Shown: positions 3,756 to 63,618 of the stretch, in pieces
Numbering within the stretch: the first letter of the stretch is position 1
Layout of the letters: every line of letters begins with the position of its first letter
Assembly: GCA_024137785.1 (NCBI GenBank)
Contig: JAHRHZ010000267.1
Span: 23,695,261-23,759,260 of the forward strand
From: Ginglymostoma cirratum
Lineage: Eukaryota
DNA length: 64,000 nt
Reading direction: 5' to 3'
The notes under the pieces: generated by a model
Databases searched by the model: none
What the model saw: only the letters and a program-made list of their open reading frames with translations
What the model was told of the DNA's origin: nothing
Made by a program: the position numbers and the translations under genes

Positions 3756-5859
3756 CACTGCCAGCATTTTGTACACTATAGCTAAATGGAATCTGTGCTG
3801 TTCGCCACCATGTTGTAAGGTGTATCTTCACCACAGCTCACCATGTTGTATGAGCTATCTGATAGCTTTGTTGCCAACATCTGTTTTCTTAATAGGGATT
3901 TACAGGGCCTGCCTGATCTGGTGTGATTGAGGAAAACCACCTGGTAGTTCAGTAAAAGTAGACTCTTGTCTTAAACAAGATGTAGTTTTTTGTTTGCATT
4001 ATGGCAAATGGATACAATTCACATCGGTGTGATAGACATTGTTATTAAGTCTATGAGGGAGAACTTGATGTTAGCTCTTAGTTATTCAAAACAAGAATCC
4101 ATTACCTCCACAAGATCCATAGGACATTATCATATTGGGCAATGCTCAATGTACACCTCATCATTAATCCTCTTGGAGCCTTATGCTCTTAGAAAACAAC
4201 TACCTCCTCCAGGACCTCCAGTCCCACATCGGTGAAATCACACACCCTCCAATATTTTCCCTGAACCATCCTGGAAACTGCACTGTGTGTCAGTCAACCC
4301 ACTCTACATCATCAGTGAAAGTGGTTGAGTGGACCCCACATATTCTGCTCCAGGAAATCGCTTCCAATGAGTGACTGAGTGCTAAACCTGCAGCTGTCTG
4401 CACATCCAGCCAAGTTCAAATGATACTTATCGATGGTTAGGGCAAAACTGCAGACTTAAAACTAGACTCCCAGAGACATGTCTTATCAGCACTGCACAAC
4501 ACAGTGCTTGTTTTCATCCATCGCTAAAATATCTCCGATTTTTAACAATCATAACCGAGTAAAGTCTATTTCAGGCAGGCAGCTTGTGGCAATATTTTTA
4601 CAATGACAACACTTGGCCAGCAATTAGACACTAGTGAACAAAATGGCTTGAATCATGTGAATTGTGAAGGGGTTGTGATGAAGTTCAAGTAAATGAATAC
4701 TGATAGCTTGAGGAGTCTGATTTCTTAGATCATTGGTTCACCAGTGTCCACTTTCAGGGGAATGTAATGCTTTTGTCCCTTCCAGTCATTTCCATCTCAT
4801 TGCTGCAGTAATAGGGCACAGACCATGACAATATGAGACACTGGCTGCAAAGATGTTGGACACAATACGGCACATTTTCTTCTGTTTGCATGTTTATTCC
4901 TGTTTTTTGTTATGATTGATTAGCATTGCTTTTCATTTAATGCTGCATTGTAACATTGCTGTTAAATATGCTATTTAAGCAGAGTTATACATTAGACCGA
5001 GATAGCTTGGTGCTCACTGCATTGCAGTTGTTCAGTGCCACCGCTATCGGGAGAGGAGTTAATTGGATTCACATGTCGTTTTGCAGTGCTTCTTCCTTTC
5101 TTACATCATTCACACATCATTGCAGTTAATAGCTCTCTAGATGCATTTTCCTTAGCAAGTTGTCATTAATAGGGTTGGTGTTGTTGGACTGTATTAATGA
5201 TACATAATTATATAAAGCAATTGTACAGAACTTATATTGTTTCTTTTTTTATTTAAATTTTCTTACATTCCAGTTATGTCAGAAAGCATTTTTTAAAATC
5301 AATTACACATACCTTTCTTCAATGTAATTGTGTTATTTGATTATTTTGTTTTTTAAAAAAATTTGTGAAACTAACATTGGAAAATGCAGGCGGTTAAGTG
5401 ACTGCCTGCTCCAATGATATCCATCCGCACTGGGTACTGCAGTTTCTTGCTCTGGATTAACATCAGAAATAGCATAGTGCCACAGTCACTAATAGTAAAC
5501 GTGCTGTAGGCCTAAAATCACAGTTGGAACTGGATCATTGCCAAGCATTCCTGGGCATGCAGTGCAGTGCAGTGGTTATCAGGCTTAACGGATTACCAGG
5601 TACTTTCTGCAGATTTTCTCCCCATTTTAATTTGAAATGCGAAAGTCTTTCCCAATTCCTATTTTGGTGATACACTTTTCATCAATTAAATATGTAATAT
5701 CCTGTTCAATACAGATAATTTCTGAACCTAAATACTGTCAACAAACTATCACAAGGTTACAAAATTGCAAATGACATACATATAAAGATGAACATTTGAC
5801 ATCTTTCAGCTCATCCATGTCAACACAATCATCACCCAATCATTCACACAATCACCCAT

Positions 5860-7066
5860 TAATATCATGAGTGACCAATCAACAAAAAAGGATGAATCCA
5901 CTCCAAGCAATTACCACTCCAATTGTCTACTCTCAATCATTAGCAAAGTGATGGAAGGTGTTGTCAGCAGCAATAATCTGCTCACTGATGACAAGTTTGG
6001 GTTCCATCAAGATGACTCCGTTCCTGACAACATTACAGCCATGGTCCAAACACGCACAGAACAACTGCATCACAGGGATGAGGTGGGAGAGACTGTTTTT
6101 CATATGAAGGCCACACTTGATCATGTGTGGCATCAAGATACCCCAGCAAAACTGCATTCAAAGGGAATCAAGGGAAAAACCCTCCACTGGTCGTAGTCAT
6201 ACCTTGCAAAAAGGAAGACGATTATGGTTTTTGGGGGCCAATCATCTCAGTCACAGGACATCTCTGCAGGAGTTCCTCAGGGTAGGATCCTAGATGCAAT
6301 CATCTTCAGCTGCTCCATCAAGGATGTTTCCTCCATCATATCATCAGGGGTGGGGATGTTCGCTGATATTTGCACAATGTTCAGTGCCATGCAAGCTTCT
6401 TCAGATATTGCAGCGGCCTGTGCCCATATGCAGCAAGACCTGAACAACATTCAGGCTTGGGCTGATAAGTGACAAGTAACATTTGTGCTGAACAAGTGCC
6501 TGGCAATGAGCATCTCCAACAAGAGACAATCTAATTATCTTTGCCATCACTGAACCCTCAACCAACAACATTCTGAGAGTCACTATTGACCAAAACCCTA
6601 GCTGGGTTATTGTATAAATGCTACGGCCACAGGAGCAGAAGAGAAGCTGAATGTGCTGTAACTAGAAACTCTCCTGACTGCCCAAAGCCTTTCAAGACAC
6701 AGATGGCAGATGTGAACCATTTGCAAGATGCAACAAAATAATCCAATAAACCTCTTTTGACAGCACATTCTAAACCTGTGACCTCTACCACCTGGAAGAA
6801 TGGACTACAGATATTTGGGAACACAACCAACCACAAATTCTCCTCCAGGCCACTCACCATCATTACTTGGTACTGTATCACTGTTCATTTACTGGCTGTG
6901 GGTAAAAATTCTGGGAACTTCTCTAATAATCCTATGGGTGGCTCTACACCCCAAGGACTGCAAGGGTTCAAGAAGGCAGCTCACTACCACCTTCTGAAGA
7001 GCAATTAGGGATGAACAATAAAGGCTGGCCTTGCCAGCCACAGTCACATCAATGAACAACAAAAAA
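5860..7066 (+). mobile_element. Non-LTR LINE (CR1/L2 superfamily) RT fragment with 3' end
   Basis: ORFs 5867-6196 and 6224-6472: NYHSNCLLSIISKVMEGV, GVPQGRIL, MFADI, QQDLNNIQAWADK. 3' tail gcaattagggatgaacaataaaggctggccttgccagc...aaaaaa. Confidence 0.85.
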
Positions 7067-9632: not shown

Positions 9633-9635
9633 GAC

Positions 9636-9920
9636 CTCACCCACATATACAAACTCATCCACCTACCCAACCTCACCTACCTATACATCATCACCCACCT
9701 ACCCAACCTCACCCAGCTACCCAAACTCACTTACCATTCCAACATCACCCACCTACCCAAACTTACCTACCTATCCAACATCACCCACCTACCCAACCTC
9801 ACCCACCCTCCAATCTCGCCCACGTATACAACCTCACTCACCTACCCAACCTCACCAATCTACCCAACCTTACCCATCTATCCGGCATTGCCCACCTAGA
9901 CAATCTCATCGACCTACCCA
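9636..9920 (+). repeat. Degenerate 18-bp C/A-rich minisatellite (acccacctacccaacctc)n
   Basis: Tandem units are directly visible. They explain the THLPNL / HPPTQP pseudo-ORFs. Confidence 0.9.
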
Positions 9921-21399: not shown

Positions 21400-23450
21400 A
21401 CGTGTGAGCTTTCATCAGGAGTACAGCAGGTCATTCCTGGTTTAGCACGTTAACCCACGGACATGTGAGGGGAGTGCGGGCATTGTGATGCTGATCCAAC
21501 TAAAGCACAAATTGAATGTGTCGGTCATCTCTCTAGGTCCACTGCGTCAGACGGGGCTCATTCACTTTGTACAAAACAGCCGGTTGCTTTAAATGGCAGT
21601 GCGCGGACCCTCCCTCTGTGAAGCCCAGGCGGCCTACAGCCAGGAGAGTGCACTTTTGAGTATGGGTGAGGAGGAAGCCATTGATATGAACTTTGTTTGT
21701 GTCCTGGGGGAGCCTCCGCTACTCTGATTGAATAAGGCAGCCATGAACACACCTGAAGTGGCCCATTAACATCGTACTGGGATCCTACCCAAGCAGTTAA
21801 GATTCTGACTTTCATGGTGATATGAAGCTGCTGTCTGAGAAAAATTGTCCAAGGCAGGAATCAAACACAATGCACCGCTTAAATGTTAATTCACATTCCT
21901 TCATCCATCTGATTGCAGGAAACTTCCCTTGGTCTGTACTCAGCACATGACCTTTTGTCCTGTCTATTGATGCTATCATTGGATTTGTTTGAAACTGTCG
22001 GGTGAAGTTCAGTGTGATGGACAACAAAATCAGTGGTAGCACATTGCCCGTCCAGTATGAGAATTTCCTATCACTTTATATTGTATTGTATTGTCTTGTC
22101 TTGGAACATTACTGCTACCCTCTATCAGGGCACTGTCGCTTCTGTCTGGGCACGGCTGCAGTCTTATATTCGGACATTATTGCCATATTCTCTCGGCTCT
22201 GTCTCTTTGCTTATTCCGGACGTTGTTAGCCTGCTCTGTTTGGAAATAGAAGGGAACTTTCAGTTTTGTAAAAGCCTTCGCTGTCCTCATTGGGGATAAT
22301 GAAGAGCGTTCATTTCTGGGATTGTCACTTGAGAGGCTCACAATCCATTCGGTTAGCTTCTTATTTCCACACACAGTAAGCCCCTAGTGTCAGTGTTTGT
22401 GTGTACTCCTTATGAAAATCCATTATTGCTGTTCTCTGTTCTGGTTCAGGTTGCATCTTGCTTTATAAAAAAAGGTGATATACTGTACTTTAAAGAATTT
22501 GGCTGATTCCACCATTTGACACTGTCCGAGATAAGTTCCTGCGGTTGGGGTATCACAATTTCCCTCAAATGAATTCCGTACCTGCCCTTGTTTTGAGAGA
22601 ATATTCCCCTGTTCAGGAGATTGGTGCAGTCCAAGGACTGCTGTGGCTCTGTGTGCGCACAGCACTGACAGAGAGGAAGCTGGAAAACCGCTCACTTATG
22701 ACTGCATCAGGCGTGACTGAGGATTTTGTTGTGCCTATCACATTCCTTGCAATCTGTCATCTGAGCTGCACTTTAGACTCTTGTGTATCCAGGAAGGGAT
22801 ATATCTCCCAGCTCCCCACAGCCAGCTCTCTTTCTGGCTTCCAGTCTGCCAGAGTAACAGGCTGCATTACTGCTGCAGCCTTATAGGGGGACTCTTTTAA
22901 AAACACTGCAGAAGAACTAACAGCTACTTCACCATGACTCTGAAGTCCAACAAGAGCGAGCCCCTTGGCCCTTTCGCTGCCTTCGAGAGTATCAATAGTT
23001 GCCGGACCCCCCTGTCTGATCTATACTTGGAGCAGCTACTGCAGAGCAAAGGCAAGGCTGAGGTGAGTAGTTTTTCCGTCCAGGCCACTTCCCAACAACT
23101 CCCTGTGTTTTTTTTTGTTCCCAGACATCCTGAATCGACCCCTTTTCTTGTCCTTATCTCCAGCCCGAGCCGCTGCTGTGTTTGTGACAGTGGGAAAAGA
23201 GCGTGTGTATCCAGCCAACTGCTGCTGTGTATTGCTCGCCTTTGCCAACGCTTGGGTAATTCTCTGCTCAGCTGCTCCATTGGTCAGGGGTTAAGAATAG
23301 ACTGCATCATTAAATTACTGTGAAAGCGTGGCCTTGTGAGCCGCTGGAAAGCGGTGTGTATCGTGGATGAGATCTGGAGGTGATTTATCATTAAACGCCA
23401 CTGGTGTTCTTCCTGGGCGAGAAACAGTACATAGCTTTCAGCAGCAGGAA
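21400..23450 (+). promoter_or_regulatory. Putative MPP1 promoter / first-exon region
   Basis: Repeat-free stretch with visibly more CpG than the flanks, surrounding coding exon 1. AGATAA (GATA) motif at 22529-22534. The TSS cannot be determined from sequence. Confidence 0.45.
22934..23062 (+). CDS. MPP1: MPP1 (55 kDa erythrocyte membrane protein, p55 MAGUK), coding exon 1
   Basis: accATG Kozak context. Translation MTLKSNKSEPLGPFAAFESINSCRTPLSDLYLEQLLQSKGKAE matches the recalled p55 N-terminus MTLKAS...TALSDLYLEHLLQKRSRPE. Ends at a strong phase-0 donor GAG|gtgagt at 23063. Confidence 0.92.
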
Positions 23451-29589: not shown

Positions 29590-31750
29590 AGATTGCACCC
29601 CCCAACAGTAAGAGAGACATTGAGAAACAAATATGTAGGGAGAACTCCGATATATATAAGCATAATAAGGTTGAAAAATTAAGATTTTTCAAATATTGGC
29701 TAGGATTACAATAGCGTTAAAGGTTTGGAAGGTGAAGAATTTGTCAAATGTGCTCAAGAAATTTTCTTTATCAATATGTAGATGCTCCTACCAGAAAAGG
29801 ATCAAACTAGATATTCTTTTCAGCAATAAGGCAGGGCAGCTGACTGAAGTGAAAGTGGGGGAGCAGGGTCAGCGATCATTATTTTATTGGTTTCAAAATG
29901 GTTATGAAAAAGGATGAGTCTCCAATAAAAATTAAACTTTTAATTGGAGTAAGGCAAATTTTAATGGCATGAGACAAGAACTTTCAAAAGTTGATTGGAG
30001 TAGACTGTTTACAGGTAAAAGGACGTCTGACAAGTGGGAGGCATTCAAGAGTGTGATGATGAGAGCTCAGAGGCATTTTGTTTCTGTTAGAGTGAAGGGT
30101 AAGGCTGGTAAGATTAAGGAACAATGGATGAATAAAGATATTGAGGTTATAGTCAAGAATAAAAGAGAGTCATTTTTTTAAATATAGACAACTTGGTTCA
30201 ATTGAATCTCTTAAGAATGCCCCTACACTCTTTATAATGATTAAGAGAGAAATCAGGAAGGCAGAGAGGGGATATGAGATATCATTGGCAGGTAAGGTTA
30301 AGGATAATCCAAAGAGATTCTACAAGTACATTTAAGAGCAACAGGCTAACTAGAGAGAGGGTTGGGCCTCTTAAAGATCAATGAGCTCGTCTTTGTGTTG
30401 AACCCCAGGAGATGGGAGAGATACTAAATGAATATTTCGCGTCAGTTTTTACTGTGGAGAAAGAAATGGAGTCTAAAAAATTCACAGAAATAAACTTTGA
30501 TGTTTTAAAACAGTTCACATTACAGAAGAGGACGTTCAGGAGGTCTTTAGATAATATAAAGGTGGATAAATCTCCACGACCTGATATAATGTATCCCAGA
30601 ATGTTTTGGGAAGTAAGGGAGGAAATTACAAGACCTCTTGCAGAAATATTTGCGTCATTTACAACTACGGTGAGGTGCCTAATGACTGGAGGGTGGCTAA
30701 TGTTATACCTTTTGTTTAAGAAAGATTGTAAGGCGAAACCAGGGAACTATAGACCTGTGAATCTGATTTTAGTTGTGGGTAAATTGTTGGTGGTAATTAT
30801 TAAAAAAATAGGATTTATGGACATTTAGAGAATATAGAAGGCATGGTTAGTAAGTTTGCGGATTACACCAAAATTGGTGGCATTGTAGACGTTGAAGAAG
30901 ATTTTCTAAGATTATAAAGGTGTCTTGATCAAATGGGTCAGCGGGCTGAAAAATGGCAGATGGAGTTCAATCTGGATAAATGTGAGGTATTGCATTTTGG
31001 TACAACAAACAAGGGTAGGGCTTATACAATTAATGGTAAGGCCTTGGGCAGTATTGTAGAATAGAGGGACCTAGGGGTGCAGGTATATAATTCTTTAAAG
31101 TTTGTGTCACATATAGACAGGATGATTAAAAAGACATTTGGCACACTTGCCTTCTTTGCTCAATCCTTTGAGTTTAGGAGTTGGGACATTATGTTGAGGT
31201 TGTACAGGACATTGGTGAAACCTCTTCTGGAATACTATGTCCAGTTCTGGTCACCAAGTTATAGGAATGATATTATCAAGCTGGAGAGGGTTCAGAAGAA
31301 ATTTACCAGGATGTTGCAGGGTATGAAAGGTTTGAGGTATAAGGAAAAGATGGATAGGATGGGACTTCTTTCACTGGAGTGTAGGAGGTTGAGAGGTGAT
31401 CTGATAGAAGATTATAAAATAATGAGGCATAGGTAGAGTTGATGGTAGAGATGGGGAATTTCAAGACTGAGGGGCACATTTTTAAGGTGAGAGGAGAGAT
31501 ATTTAAGACATGAGGCAAATTTTTTTACACAGCGGGTGATTTGCATGTGGAATGAACTTCCTGAGGAAGTGTGGATGCGGATACAATTACAACATGTAAA
31601 ACACATTTCGATGGCTCTATGAATAGGAAAGGTTTGGAGAGATATGGGCCAGGAGCAGGCAGGTGGGACTAGTATAGTTTGGGATTATCTTTGGTATGGA
31701 CTGGTTGGGCCAAAGGTTCTGTCTCCGTGCTGTATGACTCTATGACTCTA
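29590..31750 (+). mobile_element. CR1 LINE ORF2 fragment with internal deletion and 3' tail
   Basis: ORFs ILNEYFASVFT, KSPRPD, PGNYRPVNL, LEYYVQFWSP, RRLRGDL and (tatgactc)n tail. Confidence 0.95.
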
Positions 31751-31844
31751 TCTCCAGATCAGCTTGATCAATGCAATGAAAACCAGGAATCAGAAACTAG
31801 GAATTCGCCAGTTTTAAAATCTCTCCACCCCTGGCCCCATCCCA

Positions 31845-46910: not shown

Positions 46911-47751
46911 AAGGGCCAAAGATGGACACTTTTTGACAAAGTAATAGGTTGACCTACACCTGCAGACCGGTCAGTATTCGTTGTTATCTGCAGAAAACGA
47001 GACAATTATTGGAATAATGAGTAAGTTTTTTTTTTAGAAAACCAAGGACAGAGATGTCATTATGACGAAAATTGGAAATGTATTAATTCCTGTTGTGTGA
47101 GGAACTAAGGGGCGTTTATCTGGTTAATAGCATGCAATCACATCTTCTGCAGTTCTGAAGATTCTTTAGCATATCTTTTTATTATCATGTGTATTCAATA
47201 TAGAATACAGTGAAAAGCCCATACATAGGGGCCATTTATATTTAACTTTATCCCAAACCCTGCCAGTTTCCTGCACACTGGGTTGCAGTTCATTAATTGC
47301 GTAGTTCAGATAGTATATGTCCTTGCACTGTAGTTGCATCTCGCCTTTTTGCCTAATTAAAATGTTTGTTCATTTTAATCAGGTAACACAATCAAGTCTA
47401 TGGCGAACTTTGTCATTTGGAGTTAAAATGTACTGACCTTTGAAGTCTAAGAATAATTTAAATAGGCTGGGTCCTCTGAACTTTACACTGCTGTGAAGTA
47501 CCTTCCTAACTGTCTGCCAGCTTCTCCAAAGTAATCTAGTAGTCAGCAGCTACTAGGTATTTACAACAGTGAGATAAGGGCCCTAATGTGGAGTCAGCGA
47601 CTGAATGTGTACTTAACACTGTTCCAACTCAATAACACGCAATGCACAAGACTTCAGCAGGTCTGGGAAGCTTCGTATTTGAGTGTAAGCACAACTATCA
47701 ATATTGCAGAGCAGACAAAGCACTGCAGAAACCTGCTTCATATACAGGATG

Positions 47752-47846
47752 AGATAACAAGGTGTAGAGCTGGATGAACACAGCAGGCCAAGCAGCATCA
47801 GAGGAGCAGGAAAGCTGACATTTCGGGCCTAGACCCTTCCTCTCAT
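47752..47846 (-). mobile_element. Short Penelope terminal-repeat insertion
   Basis: Flanked by tacaggatg at 47743-47751 and 47847-47855. Confidence 0.8.
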
Positions 47847-48589: not shown

Positions 48590-51400
48590 GTCATAGAGTC
48601 ATACAGCACAGGAACAGATTCTTCAGCCCAATTCATTCATGTCAACCAAGTTTCCCAAACTGAACTAGTCCTATTTACTGAGATAGTAGGAACTGCTGAT
48701 GCTGGACAATCTGAGATAACACGCTGTGGAGCTGGATGAACACAGCAGGCCGAGCAGAAAAGCTGACGTTTCGGGCCAAGACCCTTCTTCAGAAATTGGG
48801 GAGGGGAAGGGGATTCTGAAATAAATTGGGAGAGAGGGGGAGGCAGATAGAAGATGGATAAAGGAGAAGATAGGGTGAGAGGAGACAGACAGGTCAAAGA
48901 GGCGGCGTTAGAGCCAGTGAGGGTGAATGTAGGTGGGGAGTTAGGAGGGGATAGTTCGGTCCAGGGAGGGTGGACAGGTCAAGGAGGCAGGATGAGGTTA
49001 GTGGGTAGGAGATGGGGGTGGGGCTTGAGGTGGGAGGAATGGTTAGGGAGGCGGGGACTAGCTGGGCTGGTTTTGGGATGCAGTCGGGGGAGGGGAGATT
49101 TTGAAGCTTGTGAAGTCCACATTGATACCCTTGGGTTGCAGGGTTCCCAAGCGAAATATGAGTTGCTGTTCCTGCAGCTTTCGGGTGGCGTCATTGTGGC
49201 AATGCAGGAGGCCCAGGATGGACATGTCGTCCGAGGATTGGGAGGGGGGGGGAAGTTGAAATGGTTCACGACTGTGAGGTGTAGTTGTTTGTTGCAAACT
49301 GAGCGTAGGTGTTCCGCAAAGCGGTCCCCAAGCCTCCGCTTGGTTTCCCCGATGTAGAGGAGGCCACAACGGGAACAGCGGATACAATATATCACATTAG
49401 CAGATGTGCAGGTGAACATCTGTTTGATGTGGAAGGTCTTCTTAGGGCCTGGGCTGGGGGTGAGGGGGGAGGTGTAGCACTTGCTTCGGTTGCAGGGAAA
49501 AGTGCCAGGTGTGGTGGGGCTGGAGGGGAGTGTGAGGCAGACAAGGGAGTCACGGAAAGAGTAGTCCCTCCAGAAAGCAGATAAGGGTGGGGAGGGGAAA
49601 ATGTCTTTGGTGGTGGGGTCGGATTGCAGATGGCGGAAGTGTCGGAGGATGATGCGTTGGATCCGGAGGTTGGTGGGGTGGTACGTGAGAATGAGGGGGA
49701 TTCTGTTTTGGTTATTATAGCAGGTAGGGGGTGTGGGGATGAGTTGCGGGAAATGCAGGAGACACGGTCTAGGGCATTTTCGGTCACTGTGGAGGGGAAG
49801 TTGCGGTCCTTGAAAAACAAGGACATCTGGGATGTTCGGGAGTGGAATGCCTCATCTCAGGAGCAGATGCAGCAGAGGCGAAGGAATTGAGAATAGGGGA
49901 TGGCCTTTTTACGGGAAGGTGGGTGAGAGGAGGAGTATTCTAGGTAGTTGTGGGAGTTGGTAGGCTTAAAATGGATATCAGTTTCCAGGTGGATGCCAGA
50001 GATGGAGACAGAGAGGTCCAGGAAGGAGAGAGAGGTATCAGAGATGGTCCAGGTGAACTTAAGGTTGGGGTGGAAGGTGTTACTGAAGTGAATGAACTGT
50101 TCGGGCTCCTCGTGGGAGCACGAGGCGGCGCCAAAACAGTCATCAACGTAACGGAGGAAGAGATGGGGGATAGGGCCAGTGTAGCTTTGGAAGAGGGATT
50201 GTTCCACGTATCCTATAAAGAGGCAGGCATAGCTTGGGCCCATGCGGGTACCCATGGCCTCCCCCTTTGTCTGTAGGAAGTGGGAGGAATTGAAAGAGAA
50301 GTTGTTGAGGGTGAGGACGAGTCCTATTTACTTCTGTTTGGCCCACATCTCTCAAAACCTTTCCTATTCATTGACCTTCCGAATGTCTTTTAGATGTTGT
50401 AACTGTGCACCTGCATCTACCACTTCGTCTAGCAGTTTATTACACATACAAAACTCCCTCTGTGTAAAAATGTTGCCCTTGGGTCCCTTCTAAATCTTTC
50501 TCCTCTCACCTTAAAATTATGTTCTCTAGCTTTGAACCCCCAAACCCTAGGGAAAATAACTTTACTTCACCTTATCTTTGTCCCCCATGATTTTATAAAC
50601 CTCTATAAGGTCATCAATCAATCTCCTATGTTTCAGTGAAAGAAGTCCCAACGTATCCAGGCTCCTCTTATACCTCAAAATCTCCAATCCCAGTAGCATC
50701 CTGGTGAATCTTTTCTGCACCATCTCTGAAATAACTCCACAGAGGCTGATATCCCATCACCAAGTTGCCCTTTATTTCTACATGGAGAGTCCTTGGCACT
50801 GATCCAGCTCCCTCAGAGTGAACAGGATGTCTGACACATCTGTTTCTATCTATCATCTAGAGCTCCTTGACTGGGGCTGTTAATCTGGTCCAATCACAGA
50901 AGTTGTATTCTATGAGGTTCACCTGACTGACCTCATTACAATCACTACATCTCTCCTCCTCTGAATCTGAGGACATAGGCCAGTTCTTGTAGCTCCTCCT
51001 GGGGTGTTTTAGCACTGGGTCACGATCTTGCAACTCTGCCTCTGATGCAGGTGGTGTATAATGCACATTTTTAAAGTTCCTATCTAATGCCATCAAAATT
51101 GGCCCTACCCCAGTGTAGAACTTTAACTTTTATACAAGGCCTATCCTTTCGATAACTATTTTAAAACTAATAAAATTATGATCACTGGTCCCAAAGTGTT
51201 AGTGGGGGAGCACTTCATTCACTTGCCCTGCCTTATTTCCCAAGAAGGTCTAGTTTTGCTCCTTCTCTAGTAGGTACATCTACATATTGAAGAAAATTTT
51301 CTTGAGCACATTTAACAAATTTCCTCCCCACCTAAGCCTTGAACATTACGGCAGTCTCAGTCTATGTTTGGAATGTTAAAACCCCTGACTGTTACAACCT
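48590..51400 (-). mobile_element. CR1 LINE remnants interrupted by the Penelope element
   Basis: Tail tcatagagtcata at 48591. The 3'UTR continues after 50320, followed by RT and more 5' CR1 pieces to about 51400. Confidence 0.75.
48680..50319 (-). mobile_element. 5'-truncated Penelope-like retroelement (RT + GIY-YIG endonuclease + terminal repeat), frameshifted
   Basis: MGTRMGPSYACLF...RYVDDCFG (RT), FTCTSANVIYCIRCSRCGLLYIGETKRRLGDRFAEH (GIY-YIG), EQQLIFRLGTLQPKGIN. 13-bp TSD agtcctatttact. Confidence 0.95.
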
Positions 51401-54070: not shown

Positions 54071-54434
54071 AGGAGCACATGAGGACCTTATCCCATCACC
54101 CGTAGGATTAACCCAACTGAGATGGGCCAGTGGCCACGTGACATGAGCAAAAGGCAAAATTGTGCAGCCAGCTTACCATTTCCCAATGGGACCATCAATG
54201 AAAGGCACCCAATGCATGACTGAGAAATTAAATGTCAGGAAAGGAGGACCTGTTGAGTGCCATCACCTTGTTGGTCCTGTCAACCCCCTACAGCCCTCTG
54301 TCAGAATTACCAGCCTGTGAGACCCTTCCCAATATTACTTGTGTGTGGCCTGTGTCACTAGTCGATCCTTAAGTCTTGTGCCTGTTGTTCTGGCAGCAGG
54401 CAGGTTTTCAGATATGATAACCAGCAGCAAGGCA

Positions 54435-54975
54435 CATAGAACAATACAGCACAGTACAAGCCCTTCGGCCCACGATGTTGTGCTGACCTATTATCCTACT
54501 AAAATCAATCTACCCTGCATACCCTACATTTTACTATCCTCCATGTGTCTATCCAAGAGTCACGTAAAAGTCTCTAAAGTATCTGACTCCACTACCACTG
54601 CCGGCAGCTCATTCCACACGCCCACCATCCTCTGTGTAAATAGCCTCCCTCTGACACCTCCCTTATGCCTTCCTCCAATCACTTTAAAATTATGCCCCCT
54701 TGTAATAGTCATTTCTGCCCTGGGAAAAGTCTCTGACTATATGCTGTATCTATGCCTCATCATCTTGTAAACCTCTTTCAAGTCACCTCTCATCCTTCTT
54801 CGCTCCAACGAAAAAAGCCCTAACTCCCTCAACCTTTCCTCATAAGACCTGCCCTCCAATCCAGGCAGCATCCTGGTAAATCTCCTCTGCACCCTCCCCC
54901 TCTCTAAAGCTTCCACATCTTTCCTATAATGAGGTGACCAGAACTGAACGAAATATTCCAAGTGTGGTCTAACAT
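54435..54975 (-). mobile_element. CR1 LINE 3' fragment
   Basis: [25 protein letters not shown]...RRRMRGDL. Confidence 0.9.
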
Positions 54976-57661
54976 CTTGATGTATCTTGCAGTTCCTCAA
55001 GACTATTGTGATTTGAAGATGCAGAATTTCAGAGATTCCCATGTGTAACTCCTTGTACTTGTTCAATTGGGTCTGGTGAAGCTGCTTCCCTCACCACCAC
55101 CAACACACCACCCGCGTCGGGGGGGGGGCGGGGGCCAAACACACACACACTCTCACAGAGTTTTACTTCTGCTCCCCATCACTTCCTATAATACAGGGAA
55201 GACCGGTTCCTTGGAGACTTCTAATCTCTTCTCCCTGGATCTCAGCAGCAGCTCTTTTTTTGTTATGTGACCTCCTGTGAGAGGTACTAGGAATTGCACT
55301 CTCTCCATGGGTTTCCATTTGATTTTGTCCATTCTCAACTCTTAGCCTCATAGTGATTTGAAGCCACATGGATATTTTGGAACTGAGATGTTTACCAGAA
55401 ATTCACCACACCCTATCAGAACTATTTGTTTCACTTTGAGCTAATGGTACCTTTTAAAAGATAATCATCTTGCAAAGGGTCAGTGTTAATTACAGGAGTG
55501 AGATAAGTGTTACAGTTTGAAGTATTTGTGTATCAGAATGTCAGGGAGTGTTATAGAGAACACTTTGAATTTATCAGAGGGTGTTACAATCAGAGATGCA
55601 AGTATATCAGCAAGCTACGAGAGATAATTTGGACAGCTGATGAATATACTCCATTAAAAATTTTGCAGATGACTTCGTATCCATGTAATACCTCACTCAA
55701 GCAAAGAGGTCAAATACCGTCTTTGCGAGTTCAAAAATGAAACACATCGCCTTAAAGCTGCATCGATGATCCAGATTTTTTGATTACCTTTGGAACTGTG
55801 ATGTGGAGGTGCTGGTGTTAGCCTGGGTTGGACAAGGTCAAAAATCACACAACACTACGATATAGGCCTACAAGTTTATCTGAAAACAGTGGATAAGAGG
55901 GAAGGGTGGGTTGGAGGTGCCAGGTGCCTGAGGGAGCAGGGGAAGCAGATCATATGTCCATGAGAGGGTTATTCTTTGGCCAAGGATCAGGTCTCTGTGG
56001 CAATGAGGTAGAACAATTGGTCGATTAGTTTCATATTTAACCAGGAGTTGGAGTAGGTTTCAGTCCCTCTCAACTTTTTCTGGCTGATTATTTAAAGTAA
56101 GTAAGTCAATAAGTACTCAGAAAACTCAGAATTGCAGATTTTTCCAAAGGATTCCAGATGCTCAGTAACTGCCCATTGGAAGTTTTTAAACTTCTCAGTG
56201 TTATAATCGCAGCTGATATTATTACTGGACAGGTCAGACTGAAATCTGGCTTAATAGGTCATTTTTTCTAATATTTAATGAGGTTGCCTTTCATTGATCC
56301 ACAAACAGACAATGCTGCAGATTTGGTTTTAACAATAACATGTAGTTTATTATGCAAAATCCATGAAGGTAAAATTGAATAAGCTGAGCTATTTACACAT
56401 AATGCAATATGAAAACTTCCAAAATACATAAAATACAATCCCATCTATCCTAAGATCATCACTTCGCAGTACTCGAATATCAAAGAGAGTTCAGCTCTCT
56501 ATCGTAAGGTTTAACTTAAATGTTTTTCTTTCAATTCCAGTCTTGAATTTAGTTGCCTGTTATTTGATTTTAGTTACATAACTGAAGTTAGACTTCCTCA
56601 ATTTGAAATAACTCATTCAGGGCTCTAACCAAACACTTCTGAAATGGAGCTTTCAATTAAAACCCTTACACAGAGATAATCTATTTCTTGACAGTTCTAA
56701 GCTGTTTCTCTTCTTCACGAGAGACTGTTTGTCATTTATCTGACTTCCAGCAGGAATTATGCAAACTAAAACCAAAAGCTTCCAAGTTTTTGGTTTTCCC
56801 CCAGGCAAATGAAAAAAACTCTGATCCTTCTAAACTAAAAACAAATTAATACTCAGTGTTTACTCTGCCAACTAGTAAAACTCTCCCAATGCAAACAAAT
56901 TCCCATTATCAACCTGGGGACTTCCTCTCTCGTACTGGTTTATAAAAATCATGGCTCAAGAGGTACTGACAAGTTAATCAGTTAATGCTCTCATGCACAT
57001 GGATCCAAACCTACATGCTACTCATTCAAAATCCTTATGTAAATCAGATACTTAATTGCACCTGGCCATTAGTGTGTAGTCAATGCTTTGGGACCTCATG
57101 GGGCTTCTGAGAGGTCCCAGTGCTCATCTTTCAGGGTATGGTCCTGTCTCTGACTATCTAGAGACCAGAAAATATTGACCTAAATATGGTTGTCTACAAT
57201 GCATCTATGTATGGGTGTGTAGAATGGACTCCACACAAGCCGTTGAATTGAAACCACATTTGTGTAATAAGTGAAGCAACATACTAGTGTCATGAATGTT
57301 GAGTCTCTGAAACAAAACAATGCTACACTAAAACATGGATGTTGCTATATTTGCATAGTGACAGGTCTAAGAAACTTCAATCCTCTAATTTTTCTCTTTG
57401 AAATTTTAGTGTTTTGTCGGTTTCATTGCATAGTCGTGCTGACTCCTAACAGATAACCAATGACAGGCTGAAATTCCAACTGTAGTTTATCTATTGCATG
57501 GTGTCTCACTGCAATGATCAATGGATTGGTGCTTAGATACTAAAGCTTTGACCTATTTTCAGTCTTTGTCAGAGATGCACAACAAGTGAAGGATCATATG
57601 TGTGTTAAAGCCACGTAGTGATGTTTCTTTAATGAGTGACTTCTTTTTGGTTACTTTTCAG

Positions 57662-57736
57662 TTATTTGAGAAGATCAACATAACAATGGCCTCAAACATC
57701 AGCCCCTTGCTCACTAATGGAGTACACAATAAAGAG
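57662..57736 (+). pseudogene. CASK-like L27-region exon (relic or cassette exon) in MPP1 intron 1
   Basis: Good acceptor ttctttttggttacttttcag|, open 75 nt, phase 0/0, weak donor gttttt. LFEKINITMASNISPLLTNGVHNKE versus recalled CASK exon [26 protein letters not shown]. Confidence 0.6.
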
Positions 57737-60700
57737 GTTTTTATGTTTCACTGAAGTTGTTTTACAAATGTGGTTTACCTGACAGTGCCTGACATTATGA
57801 AATGTTGGTGTTCCACTATGCACAGCTTTGGTGTACAGCTTTGCAAGCTCTTGAGAACTGCACTAATCATATTTCCATCAGGCCCCATTTTGTGTATTTA
57901 CAGGGAAAGGAATTAGATGTGCCTGAAAGATCTAATGTTAAAAAAACGGCAGAGGTTTGGCAGTAAAAGCATTGCTTGGTATTGAACAGTGTTAGTTGAA
58001 CTCACAAGTTGAGATGATATCATTGACTTTGGTGCTCATAAGTTAGAAAGGAAGAAATCATCCATGTAGGGTCATTTGTAAGCTGACCCTCCCAGCAAAA
58101 ACTGACCAGAGCAGACCAGCCACTTGTTTCTCCAGCTACCTGATTCTACAAAAATGAGAAGTAAACTCTACTGAGTAATTAATCTCCTCTGAGGAAAGGT
58201 TAGGTTAAACCCCAGGGTTCCTGCTCCTGGTCATTTTCCAGTGACTGTTGCCAAAAAGCATGTGTGTATGTCAAGTAATGGTAAGATTTGAGGCAACTAT
58301 AATACCATGCATGGAGAAAAATTACCTTCTGGCACTTGCAATCCATGATGGTACATGAAGAATTGACATTTGCGCTGTGTATTGGAGGATAGACTGAGCT
58401 TGTGTTGTATCCTACCCTAAGTCAGTGTCTTTATGAAGGAAGGGGTGGGGGGGGCGGGGTGCAGGGGATTGACCATCAACAATGCTTACACATGATAGTG
58501 AACAAATGAAAATCACACCTGGCAGAGATGTATGAAAGTTTTCCTGCTAATTCTGAAGGCCAAACTTTGGGAACGAGGTGCACAGTAACACCTCTTTCAA
58601 GTGTTTCTTCAGGTAGTGAGTAGCAATTTATTGGGACCTAGCATAAGTGAGCTTTTCCTGGTTAAAGAATCATTTCCAACTCCCAGACTGTATTATGTGA
58701 TGACTCCTTCACTGGTCGGCTGACACAGATTGTCAAACTGTCATGTAAACCACAGGCTACAAATGCTTCACTATCAATTTCAAATCAGAAATATCCTTCA
58801 CTCTAATGAAATTTGATTGTGATCAATTTGCAATGTCATTGATATTTCAACATAAATTCAGAAAAAGAAATTTGAATCAGAGTTTGCAGTGGTGGCTTGA
58901 TAATCAGACCTTGTTTGAGGGTGATGCCCAAGAAGCATAATCCCTGCACCATCATAAACACAAAATCTCTAAAATATACATAATGGGAATATTTTGCAAA
59001 ATCCTTTCCACTAATACAAAATGCAGACGCCTTTCTCCAGTCCTATTTAAATACCCGCTGATTTATTGGGAGCAAGCATAGCTGAGTATGGAACTGCATC
59101 ATAAAACCAGCCTCAATTCAAAATAGTATAATCTCAGCTGAGGCAGCAGCTAGACTGCTACAATTGACCTCCATGCCAGTGGGGTGTAGAGGAAGAGGAG
59201 GTACAATCAGTGATTCAATAATTCCCGTTGGCAGGTTTACGACTAGATAAAGACAGTTTGGGTTCAACCATACGTCTCGATGAAAGAACTTCTGACAGTA
59301 TCTAGGATGATGCATGAAACATGACTCTCGTGAAATAGTTTTCATTCCAGTAAGAGTCAAGAAAGATATAAGCAGAGACAAAAGAGGGAAAATATTTTCT
59401 TTTCTACATCTGATATCTGTGGGATCTCAGAGTAGCTTCACCAGAATATTCAATTTAAACCTTAGGGCTCATTCTGGTTCCCTACAAGGGGTTGAACTGG
59501 CTGTATTACCACCTTCAGTTAGTGATGGTCAGAATAACAAGCCACCCTGTCATATTAACATGTTAATGATCTGATCTGCATGGGACTGCATGAGCCTCTG
59601 ATTTTGATCACTGCAATTTTAGGTGACTGGGCCTAGGGACTGGACAATGTAATGAGTTGTAACTGTGTCCTTCCACCTCTGGACTGCCTCGATGGAGCAA
59701 TTTGTATGAACCCTCACAAACAGAGTTCCAGCAGTCTATTTGGATTAGACTAATAGTAAACGGTGATTTCTACTTCCTGAAGGTGGAGAAATGCCTGATA
59801 AATAAACCTGATTGAAGCCCCTTTGACTCTGAAATACAGTTTTGGTAACTCAATGTGTAGTGTAGCTGGCACATTAGAAGGTACATTGTACAACGATACT
59901 ATGTGCAGTATTCTGAGAATTGTTTACAATAAACATTTTAAAATGCCACTTAAATATGAACAGACAAATGCTTAACATGCTACTGACATTACTATATATG
60001 TCATTTTAAAACAGCTAACCTAGTTAAAATAAAGGATACATTTAAGCTTTGTTGTCTTCTCTCTTCAAGCTCTGATTTATTCTGAACGGATCTTTTCTGT
60101 TATCTATTGTGCTGTCAGATAGCAACTCTCCAAATTATCAGGCCTGGGCTAGTATTCTGGCTGAAGCTTGGCTTACCTTAACGGAGTGACTATTGGGAGG
60201 ATAAAGGGGGAAACAGTTGCTTCACCTGTACCGGCTGTTTTCCCAAAGGGCTGTCCAGAACTAGGATCAACTCCTCACCTCATCTGAAACCAGTTTTGAC
60301 TGTTTACTCATGACATCTGAAAACTTGTCCCAGGATCCTAATGAAACGGAAAACTTCCTATGATGAGTTGTTGGTGAATGGGAATGTAGTCATGCCTATC
60401 AATGTGGTTCATGGCTGGTGTAGATCAAAACTCAACATTTGACCAGTTTTTGTAATGCAGTCAGAATCTGTAGGTGCTTTTCTACTACTTTTGGTACTAA
60501 TGATGGTATTTAAGAATGAAAAGGTTTCAATCGCCAACTATATTTCATAGCAACACAACTGCTAACTAAAGATAACAGACAGAAATACTGCACAGTGTAA
60601 TGTTCAGAGAGGAGGCTTTGCACACAATACCATCTGATAAGATATGATTGACTTTGACCTGTTATTAAACTTGGCATGTCATTGCATGAGCCTACTGATA

Positions 60701-61034
60701 GCTCCATTCAACATGTAAACGTTTTTTTGTTTAAATAGATAAATAAAAGGACCAATGTATTTGGGTAACAGTTTGAATTGCCACATAAATATGTTCTCTT
60801 TCTAATAATCTAGACAAAAGGAATACCCAAATACACTGGGGGATGGAGGCCTATACATGGTGAAAAATTATGGAGAGAAAGTTTGAAAGGATTTTTGATT
60901 TGAAAAATTCTGACGTAAATAGGAAATGGGGTTCCTATTTTAAGCCTTTTGCTAGGGAAAAAAGATGCCTTTGCATGTGGGAAAATTTATGTTCAGTGGT
61001 GCATGTATTTTTAATGGTATTTTTATTTTCTTAG

Positions 61035-61190
61035 GGTTATATGTTGACATGCAATGCTGCCCAGGACGTCTACAGCAATGGCAGTGCTAACTCCTCTCCT
61101 TACATGAATGGTAGCAGTAAAGAGCATGAGGCACAGAATGTCAAGAAAATCCAATTGGTTACATTTCAGAAAAGTACAACTGAACCCATG
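61035..61190 (+). CDS. MPP1: MPP1 coding exon 2 (linker and start of PDZ domain)
   Basis: Acceptor ttttattttcttag|, 156 nt, phase 0/0, donor |gtatgt. GYMLTCNAAQDVYSNGSANSSPYMNGSSKEHEAQNVKKIQLVTFQKSTTEPM resembles p55 EDMYTNGS...VRKVRLIQFEKVTEEPM. Confidence 0.93.
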
Positions 61191-61849
61191 GTATGTCAGC
61201 TTTCTTGGAAGGAAGTTCATTTTATTTCCCTTTTAAATTTCAAATACGTAGCCTAACTTTAACACAGAGATCCCCTGCTAAAGGGGAACAAATTCCCGCC
61301 ACAACTGTCACTAACTATCAGCTTCTGCACCCCTCCACGCCCCATTTACCTGTCGAACAGTGTCGTGAGTAAGCAAAACATTTTGCATTTTAGAAAGATA
61401 ACATGAGGCTCATTCAGCCCTGCCAGATATTCACGTTTTAGTACCTGACCCCATCCCCTTCCTATACCTCCTGGCAATACAGTTCAGTGTCTTGCTTAAC
61501 CAAGTACTGTTGGTGCCCTTATCTCCAAATTCGTCCACAGACTTCCTCATAATGATTTTCTACAGCTTTGCGTTCTCACTTTCGCCATCTACTTTTTCAG
61601 CATCGACTTCACGGGCAGTTCATCCTCTTTCTGATTACCATCAATTTCCAGAGTCTTCGGACATTTTCTATATTCTGGAATTTGGCCCTTAACTGCCTTC
61701 ATTTCTTTTCCATCTTGAATATTGAATCTCTTCCGGGTCTTGTTCAGTGATGGCTACCAATTGTAAAGTGCTTAGGAATGTTTCGCTTTGATAAAGACCT
61801 TCTATAGATGTCACTTTGTTATTATTCACACACTGACTCTCCCCATGGG

Positions 61850-63539: not shown

Positions 63540-63618
63540 GGAATTACTCTGAAACTCAATGACAAGGGGCGCTGTGTTATTGGAAGGATCTTGCATGGAG
63601 GGATGATTCACAGGCAAG
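63540..63618 (+). CDS. MPP1: MPP1 coding exon 3 (PDZ domain)
   Basis: Acceptor ttcttgtatctgcag|, 79 nt, phase 0/1, donor |gtgtga. [26 protein letters not shown](G) is close to p55 [27 protein letters not shown]. Confidence 0.95.

Follow-up and report, generated by a model that had tools for sequence, protein, structure and literature searches.

The MPP1 locus of the nurse shark Ginglymostoma cirratum raises the question of whether a gene that no longer encodes an L27 domain can still carry, and still use, an exon from the L27 region of its paralogue CASK. MPP1 (p55) consists of PDZ, SH3 and GK domains. The initial annotation of this locus had described it as a CASK paralogue without the CaMK and L27 domains, and this is borne out by our data: no kinase or L27 domain was detected, and a tree of the PDZ-SH3-GK core (26 rows, midpoint root) places MPP1 as the sister of vertebrate CASK, within the CASK group, with a support of 99/99. 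This placement agrees with what is given in the accessible text of PMC2859873 and PMC1978500. The same annotation had singled out a short open segment in the first intron of MPP1. We hold with good confidence that this segment is an alternatively spliced in-frame exon, likely derived from the L27-bridging exon of CASK, and that its present role is likely that of a regulated insertion in the N-terminal tail, not that of a component of an L27 fold.

The cassette and its host gene

The window that we analyzed is the whole 64,000-nucleotide stretch G000:C267:23695261-23759260, and positions below refer to it. MPP1 lies on its plus strand. The coding part of exon 1 (22934..23062, 43 codons, phase 0 end, donor gtgagt) is the upstream splice partner of the cassette; exon 2 (61035..61190, 52 codons, phase 0/0) corresponds by homology to the CASK exon in which L27C ends and the PDZ domain begins; and exon 3 (63540..63618, PDZ) is joined to it by the junction 61190^63540, met in RNA runs X1, X2 and X7. 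Nine more MPP1 exons follow beyond the window. Intron 1 measures 38 kb, and the cassette (57662..57736, plus strand, 75 nt, phase 0/0, 25 amino acids) is its one real exon, as indicated by RNA, orthologous isoforms and homology tests.

The strong acceptor and open phase-0/0 frame that had been reported for this segment were reproduced in coordinates, translation and frame. The polypyrimidine tract and AG acceptor (57632..57661, plus strand), with pyrimidines at 14 of 17 positions and the ending ...ttttcag, are used in runs X2 and X3. The donor, GAG/gttttt (gttttt at 57737..57742, plus strand), had been called weak and indeed matches the consensus at 5 of 9 positions, versus 7 for the exon 1 donor; its joining to exon 2 is read from loose ends behind 57747. 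The distance to exon 2, given earlier as 3.3 kb, is 3,298 nt. A DNA search of the genome found the cassette to be single-copy, and its flanks are not repeat-like. In a zebra-shark RefSeq protein the translations of exons 1 and 2 are identical to those of the window, and 2 of the 25 cassette residues differ.

Several repeats were also seen in the window. A broken Penelope-like retroelement fragment at 48982-50327 on the minus strand (GIY-YIG E=3e-4, RVT_1 E=0.11) showed very high read depth that comes from copies elsewhere. High-copy repeat stretches, and LINE-like open frames that were recognized by eye and gave no Pfam match, occur at 47750-47840, 54300-54900, 30385-30825 and 5792-6193, and a tandem array with an 18/36-nt CA-rich unit occupies 9634-9920.

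Inclusion, skipping and conservation of the cassette

Six of 16 listed RNA runs were compared with the window, and the region 56001-61300 was examined in four of them (X2, X3, X4 and X7). A preceding search of the runs returned no carrier of the segment that is recorded as RNA, which weighs in neither direction, and the conclusions below come from the mapping. X2, X3 and X4 come from one study and carry no record of kind and tissue, and X7 consists of raw reads; X1 and X8 were compared only in a first, repeat-swamped mapping of the window, and the 12 records of X8 that matched all fell on repeats. These data show that the cassette is a live optional exon of shark MPP1 and not a fossil. The bin that holds it has a depth of 339 in X2 and 11,263 in X3, versus 2-9 in the flanking bins. 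The left loose ends of the cassette contigs correspond to the end of exon 1 (28 nt in X2, 10 nt in X3), and the right loose ends to exon 2, over 16 nt (X2) and 14 nt (X3) beyond an 11-nt chance overlap with the start of the intron. Both inclusion junctions, exon 1 to cassette and cassette to exon 2, were thus seen in X2 and X3, read from the loose ends of one contig per run with no formal joint listed; the last bases of exon 1 appear as loose ends both before 57660 and before 61033. We note that the first 11 intron bases after the cassette (57737-57747) match the first 11 of exon 2 at 9 of 11 positions, so that the junction between cassette and exon 2 can escape read aligners.

Skipping was seen as a direct joining of exon 1 to exon 2 in X4 (one contig) and X7 (28 raw reads), with no signal on the cassette in X4 and about one read's worth in X7, and skipping isoforms of 483/484 amino acids are present among RefSeq proteins. 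Contig depth, which is a poor measure of level, gives rough inclusion ratios of 0.48 (X2), 0.32-0.41 (X3) and 0.001 (X4). The segment had been proposed as either a fossil or a still-spliced cassette: inclusion in X2 and X3, together with the RefSeq isoforms, settles for the latter, and the fossil reading falls. In-frame splicing between exons 1 and 2, considered possible beforehand, does take place, with inclusion in two runs and skipping in two others. The onward junction to 57904 that had also been suggested was not borne out, since the candidate exon at 57904-57954, which lies 167 nt beyond the cassette and offers a good acceptor and an open frame of 51 nt, has background depth in 4/4 runs. 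As a remnant of the next CASK exon this segment was likewise rejected, its likeness being reached by 544/20,000 shuffles and its intron rank being 5 at the protein level and 43/301 at the DNA level.

Other readings of the region were set aside. Use of a start codon within the cassette, at 57686 with A in position -3 and G in +4, is not favoured, as Heptranchias does not have it and the RNA shows splicing from exon 1. For an alternative erythroid promoter near 57344-57490, suggested by one X1 contig and a few motifs, no 5' pile-up is listed. Near the cassette lie an RBFOX-type motif at 57495 and QKI-type motifs at 57713 and 57862. The depth of MPP1 contigs at 61035-61190 is about 40-100 times higher in X3 than in X2 and X4 of the same study, contig depth being a poor measure; a blood-rich sample would fit with p55.

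The cassette is already contained in automatic RefSeq gene models of Stegostoma, Hemiscyllium, Cetorhinus, Heptranchias and the sawfish Pristis (XP_048400840.1, XP_067853050.1, XP_051877084.1, XP_078403272.1 and XP_060688675.1), where it appears at the protein level as a 25-residue insert spanning several shark orders and one batoid. Conservation in other chondrichthyan MPP1 loci, on which the initial annotation had made its reading depend, is therefore found in four other sharks and a sawfish, and is not seen in the five chimaera proteins. In numbers, the insert is present in 5 of the 28 MPP1 proteins inspected from elasmobranchs (15 of the 37 main-cluster members being among those listed), but in 0/5 Callorhinchus and 0/140 bony-vertebrate proteins, in a survey of annotated proteins that were mostly cluster representatives (best 120 of 1,170 hits). 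The proteins identified as MPP1 included no cyclostome sequence, one marmot model carries a 17-residue insert unrelated to the cassette, and the cassette is not among the listed skate or catshark isoforms. To judge from these annotated sequences, it was likely dropped in bony vertebrates.

Over six sequences, 12 of the 25 cassette residues are invariant, with patches at positions 3-5 (EKI) and 19-23 (NGVHN). Pairwise identities among the four full isoforms are 68-84% for the cassette, 79-89% for exon 2 and 95-100% for exon 1, which makes the cassette the least conserved coding part compared. Two proteins begin differently: three other residues stand ahead of the cassette in Hemiscyllium X3 (P0019), and three others ahead of exon 2 in Scyliorhinus X2 (P0018). 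These odd starts hint at further 5' exons, and no exon end matching them was found in the window's MPP1 intron 1.

Relationship to the L27-bridging exon of CASK

All 10 introns downstream of MPP1 exon 2 coincide with CASK introns in place and phase. The CASK gene of the same genome was mapped on contig C32, where the homologue of MPP1 exon 2 is preceded by an 81-nt exon and, before that, a 78-nt exon, both phase 0/0. The exon that the initial annotation had placed two exons upstream is thus real in this genome (G000:C32:9371930-9372007). By Pfam coordinates it holds the L27N end, the linker and the L27C start. Its donor is a non-canonical GC (gcaagt; G000:C32:9372008), and with the weak GT of the cassette neither paralogue has a typical donor at the matching exon. 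In human numbering the CASK exon is probably number 13, if one counts from exon 11 of PMC8208546. The alternative human CASK exons named in the accessible text of that paper are 11, 19, 20 and 23L, and the L27-bridging exon is not among them.

The cassette resembles this 78-nt exon in gene order, in phases (0/0), in length (25 vs 26 amino acids, 8/26 identical) and in its atypical donor. From the sequence comparisons we consider that it very probably descends from the CASK exon spanning the L27N end and the L27C start, and the case for common descent comes from place, phase, length and register taken together, and not from unconstrained searches. In a global BLOSUM62 alignment, a test chosen after the likeness to CASK had already been seen, the cassette scores 21 against the CASK exon and ranks 1/782 among the intron's open pseudo-exons (AG..GT/GC, 60-96 nt), the next best scoring 7. 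This score was reached by 0/20,000 shuffles, or 9/20,000 with the last two residues fixed, and the corresponding counts for the five orthologous cassettes are 0-2 and 0-34 of 20,000. An alignment to CASK L27 above shuffled sequence, the other result on which the proposal had been made to depend, was obtained in this global test. When all 26-aa windows of two CASK proteins were compared, the best was the L27-bridging exon in exact register, with means of 20.2 and 20.7, versus 7.0 and 6.0 for the next non-overlapping windows. About 9/94,711 real 25-mers outside the homologous segment, counted by eye, score at least 21; the per-window chance of a CASK-like match is about 3e-5 to 1e-4. The match sits on LYDKI, the part of the bridging exon most conserved across animals. 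In six of the more divergent CASK-like proteins of invertebrates the matching segments reach scores of 17-26, and the range for the cassettes is 15-29. At the DNA level the cassette ranks 1/377 intron windows, narrowly (48 vs 46). The similarity is therefore above chance when exon ends are respected, order, phases and length also agree, and the intervening 81-nt CASK exon is missing.

Unconstrained searches gave a different picture. A tblastn search with full CASK, as had been suggested, missed the cassette at E<=50. Local shuffle tests were weak (55/5,000 for the window cassette, 1,244/5,000 for that of sawfish). In a local intron scan the cassette ranked 4, a chance segment at 31763 scoring 28 versus 25 for the cassette, and in an anchored scan the two scored 21 and 23, respectively. 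HHalign gave P=0.47 for the cassette, in the same register, and in a reverse scan 3/94,564 unrelated windows scored above the CASK exon. Between 20 kb upstream and 60 kb downstream of the window, the search for other CASK remnants (kinase, L27) gave matches no stronger than E=0.57 once the known MPP1 exons were set aside, and protein and DNA scans of the MPP1 intron gave no supported remnant of the 81-nt exon. Of the ancestral CASK-like architecture that the locus had been said to keep, what stands is one 25-residue exon; the L27 domain and remnants of other CASK exons do not.

The failure of tblastn, HHalign and Pfam to return a significant match, the similar local scores of chance intron segments, the lack of the cassette in 5 chimaera proteins and the identity to CASK of only 4/12 invariant residues would all suit a real exon that arose de novo in an elasmobranch ancestor, from exonised intron or repeat, and resembles CASK by chance. 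Such an origin would need a chance match in start, end, phases and length to one of the two CASK exons that gene order allows, at the low per-window chance given above, and in a single-copy segment whose flanks are not repeat-like; we find it quite improbable. A partial duplication of MPP1 exon 2 would account for the loose likeness of the second half of the cassette to the exon 2 motif and for the 9/11 bases after the donor that match the start of exon 2. Local alignments are at chance level for all 6 sequences (340-2,554 of 5,000 shuffles), and we disfavour this origin as extremely unlikely. A further reading is that the cassette is a relic close to neutrality, tolerated since it preserves the frame and falls in a flexible tail, its persistence being explained by slow shark evolution: it is the least conserved coding part (68-84%), it is not among listed skate or catshark isoforms, and slow chondrichthyan rates are reported in the accessible text of PMC3692497. 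Against this stand an open frame, equal length and 12 invariant residues across a shark-batoid split dated there at 306 or 261 Ma, an identity close to that of constitutive exon 2, and an all-or-none difference between RNA samples, which make neutrality unlikely.

The cassette cannot rebuild an L27 domain. Pfam L27 (PF02828, match of about 53 positions) was not found at E<=10 in 4 cassette isoforms, nor at E<=1 in single MPP1 exons, whereas the 78-nt CASK exon alone gives E=1.8e-9; an L27 search of the same genome listed 17 matches, none on the MPP1 contig. An AlphaFold2 model (mean pLDDT 41, residues 1-105 under 50) is too poor overall for assessment of the fold. Exon 1 carries a motif (22990-23062) that is conserved in the MPP1 of jawed vertebrates; its best alignments, below significance, are to L27 helices of CASK and of MPP2/6-like proteins. 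Exon 1 and the cassette could in principle form a partial L27N surface, giving the long isoform a binding site for an L27 partner, DLG1/SAP97 for instance. Placed on two CASK proteins, the exon-1 motif does fit best on L27 helices two and three (ranks 1 and 4, and 1 and 2), HHalign has its best matches on L27 in 2/3 target families, and the exon order would be colinear with CASK. These matches are not significant (67/300 shuffles; HHalign P 0.10-0.19), the cassette isoforms have no Pfam L27 match, six extra residues with Gly and often Pro break the helix at the junction in that register, and the intervening CASK exon has no detectable remnant, so that such a surface appears decidedly improbable. 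A wider version, in which the whole 'unique' N-terminus of MPP1 would be a decayed CASK L27 region, with the exon-1 motif as an L27N helix remnant and sharks and rays switching the next exon by tissue to toggle a residual L27-type contact on p55, is likewise doubtful.

Proposed history and comparison with known systems

We thus return to the cassette as a regulated tail insert. Most likely it is a former constitutive exon that a weak donor rendered optional and that was retained for a new function in the N-terminal tail. After the duplication of vertebrate CASK, the MPP1 copy would have parted with the kinase exons and with one or more L27 exons; the remaining exon, being symmetric (0/0), could be left out with the frame intact, and would have become optional once its donor weakened, to be apparently dropped later in bony vertebrates. 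Where included, presumably in a subset of tissues or cell states, it would add 25 residues ahead of the PDZ domain, and the EKI and NGVHN patches may form a short motif for binding or spacing and in this way tune p55 partners or membrane placement. Only 4 of the 12 invariant residues equal those of CASK, which hints at a newer function under selection, that of a short motif or spacer in front of the PDZ domain.

If this history holds, the trimming of MPP1 from CASK can be seen exon by exon, the L27 region not having been lost as one block, and one piece of that region would have stayed active, as a regulated exon, over some 260-300 million years or more. The cassette would be a clear example of an exon that, following gene duplication, survived the domain to which it belonged, and sharks and rays would offer a testable isoform of a red-cell scaffold, p55. 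The effect is narrow: one 25-residue insert, already annotated automatically, with a role in the tail that is only proposed. In a literature search whose scope ended short of supplements and subscription journals, we found nothing that links an MPP1 exon to the CASK L27 region, and the RefSeq isoforms with the cassette are named only 55 kDa erythrocyte membrane protein, names shown without a CASK link.

The change from constitutive to alternative exon through a relaxed 5' splice site is described in PMC2077895, and the two cases share an old exon turned optional and a weak donor; in its accessible text that work compares human-mouse orthologues, whereas the cassette shift is between paralogues and follows domain loss in the host. 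In CASK itself, the 78-nt exon completes two folded L27 domains, whereas the cassette is optional and the corresponding MPP1 domains are gone. The MPP1/p55 described in the accessible parts of PMC2859873, PMC1978500 and PMC7662862 agrees with that of shark in being a duplicate of vertebrate CASK that has PDZ, SH3 and GK domains but neither a kinase nor an L27 domain; there, both L27 domains are lost, whereas shark MPP1 still uses one exon of the region. The MPP1-like short isoforms of Drosophila CASK-alpha, as presented in the accessible text of PMC4075472, also amount to a CASK core without kinase and L27 domains, but they arise from a second promoter of one gene, whereas shark MPP1 is a duplicate.
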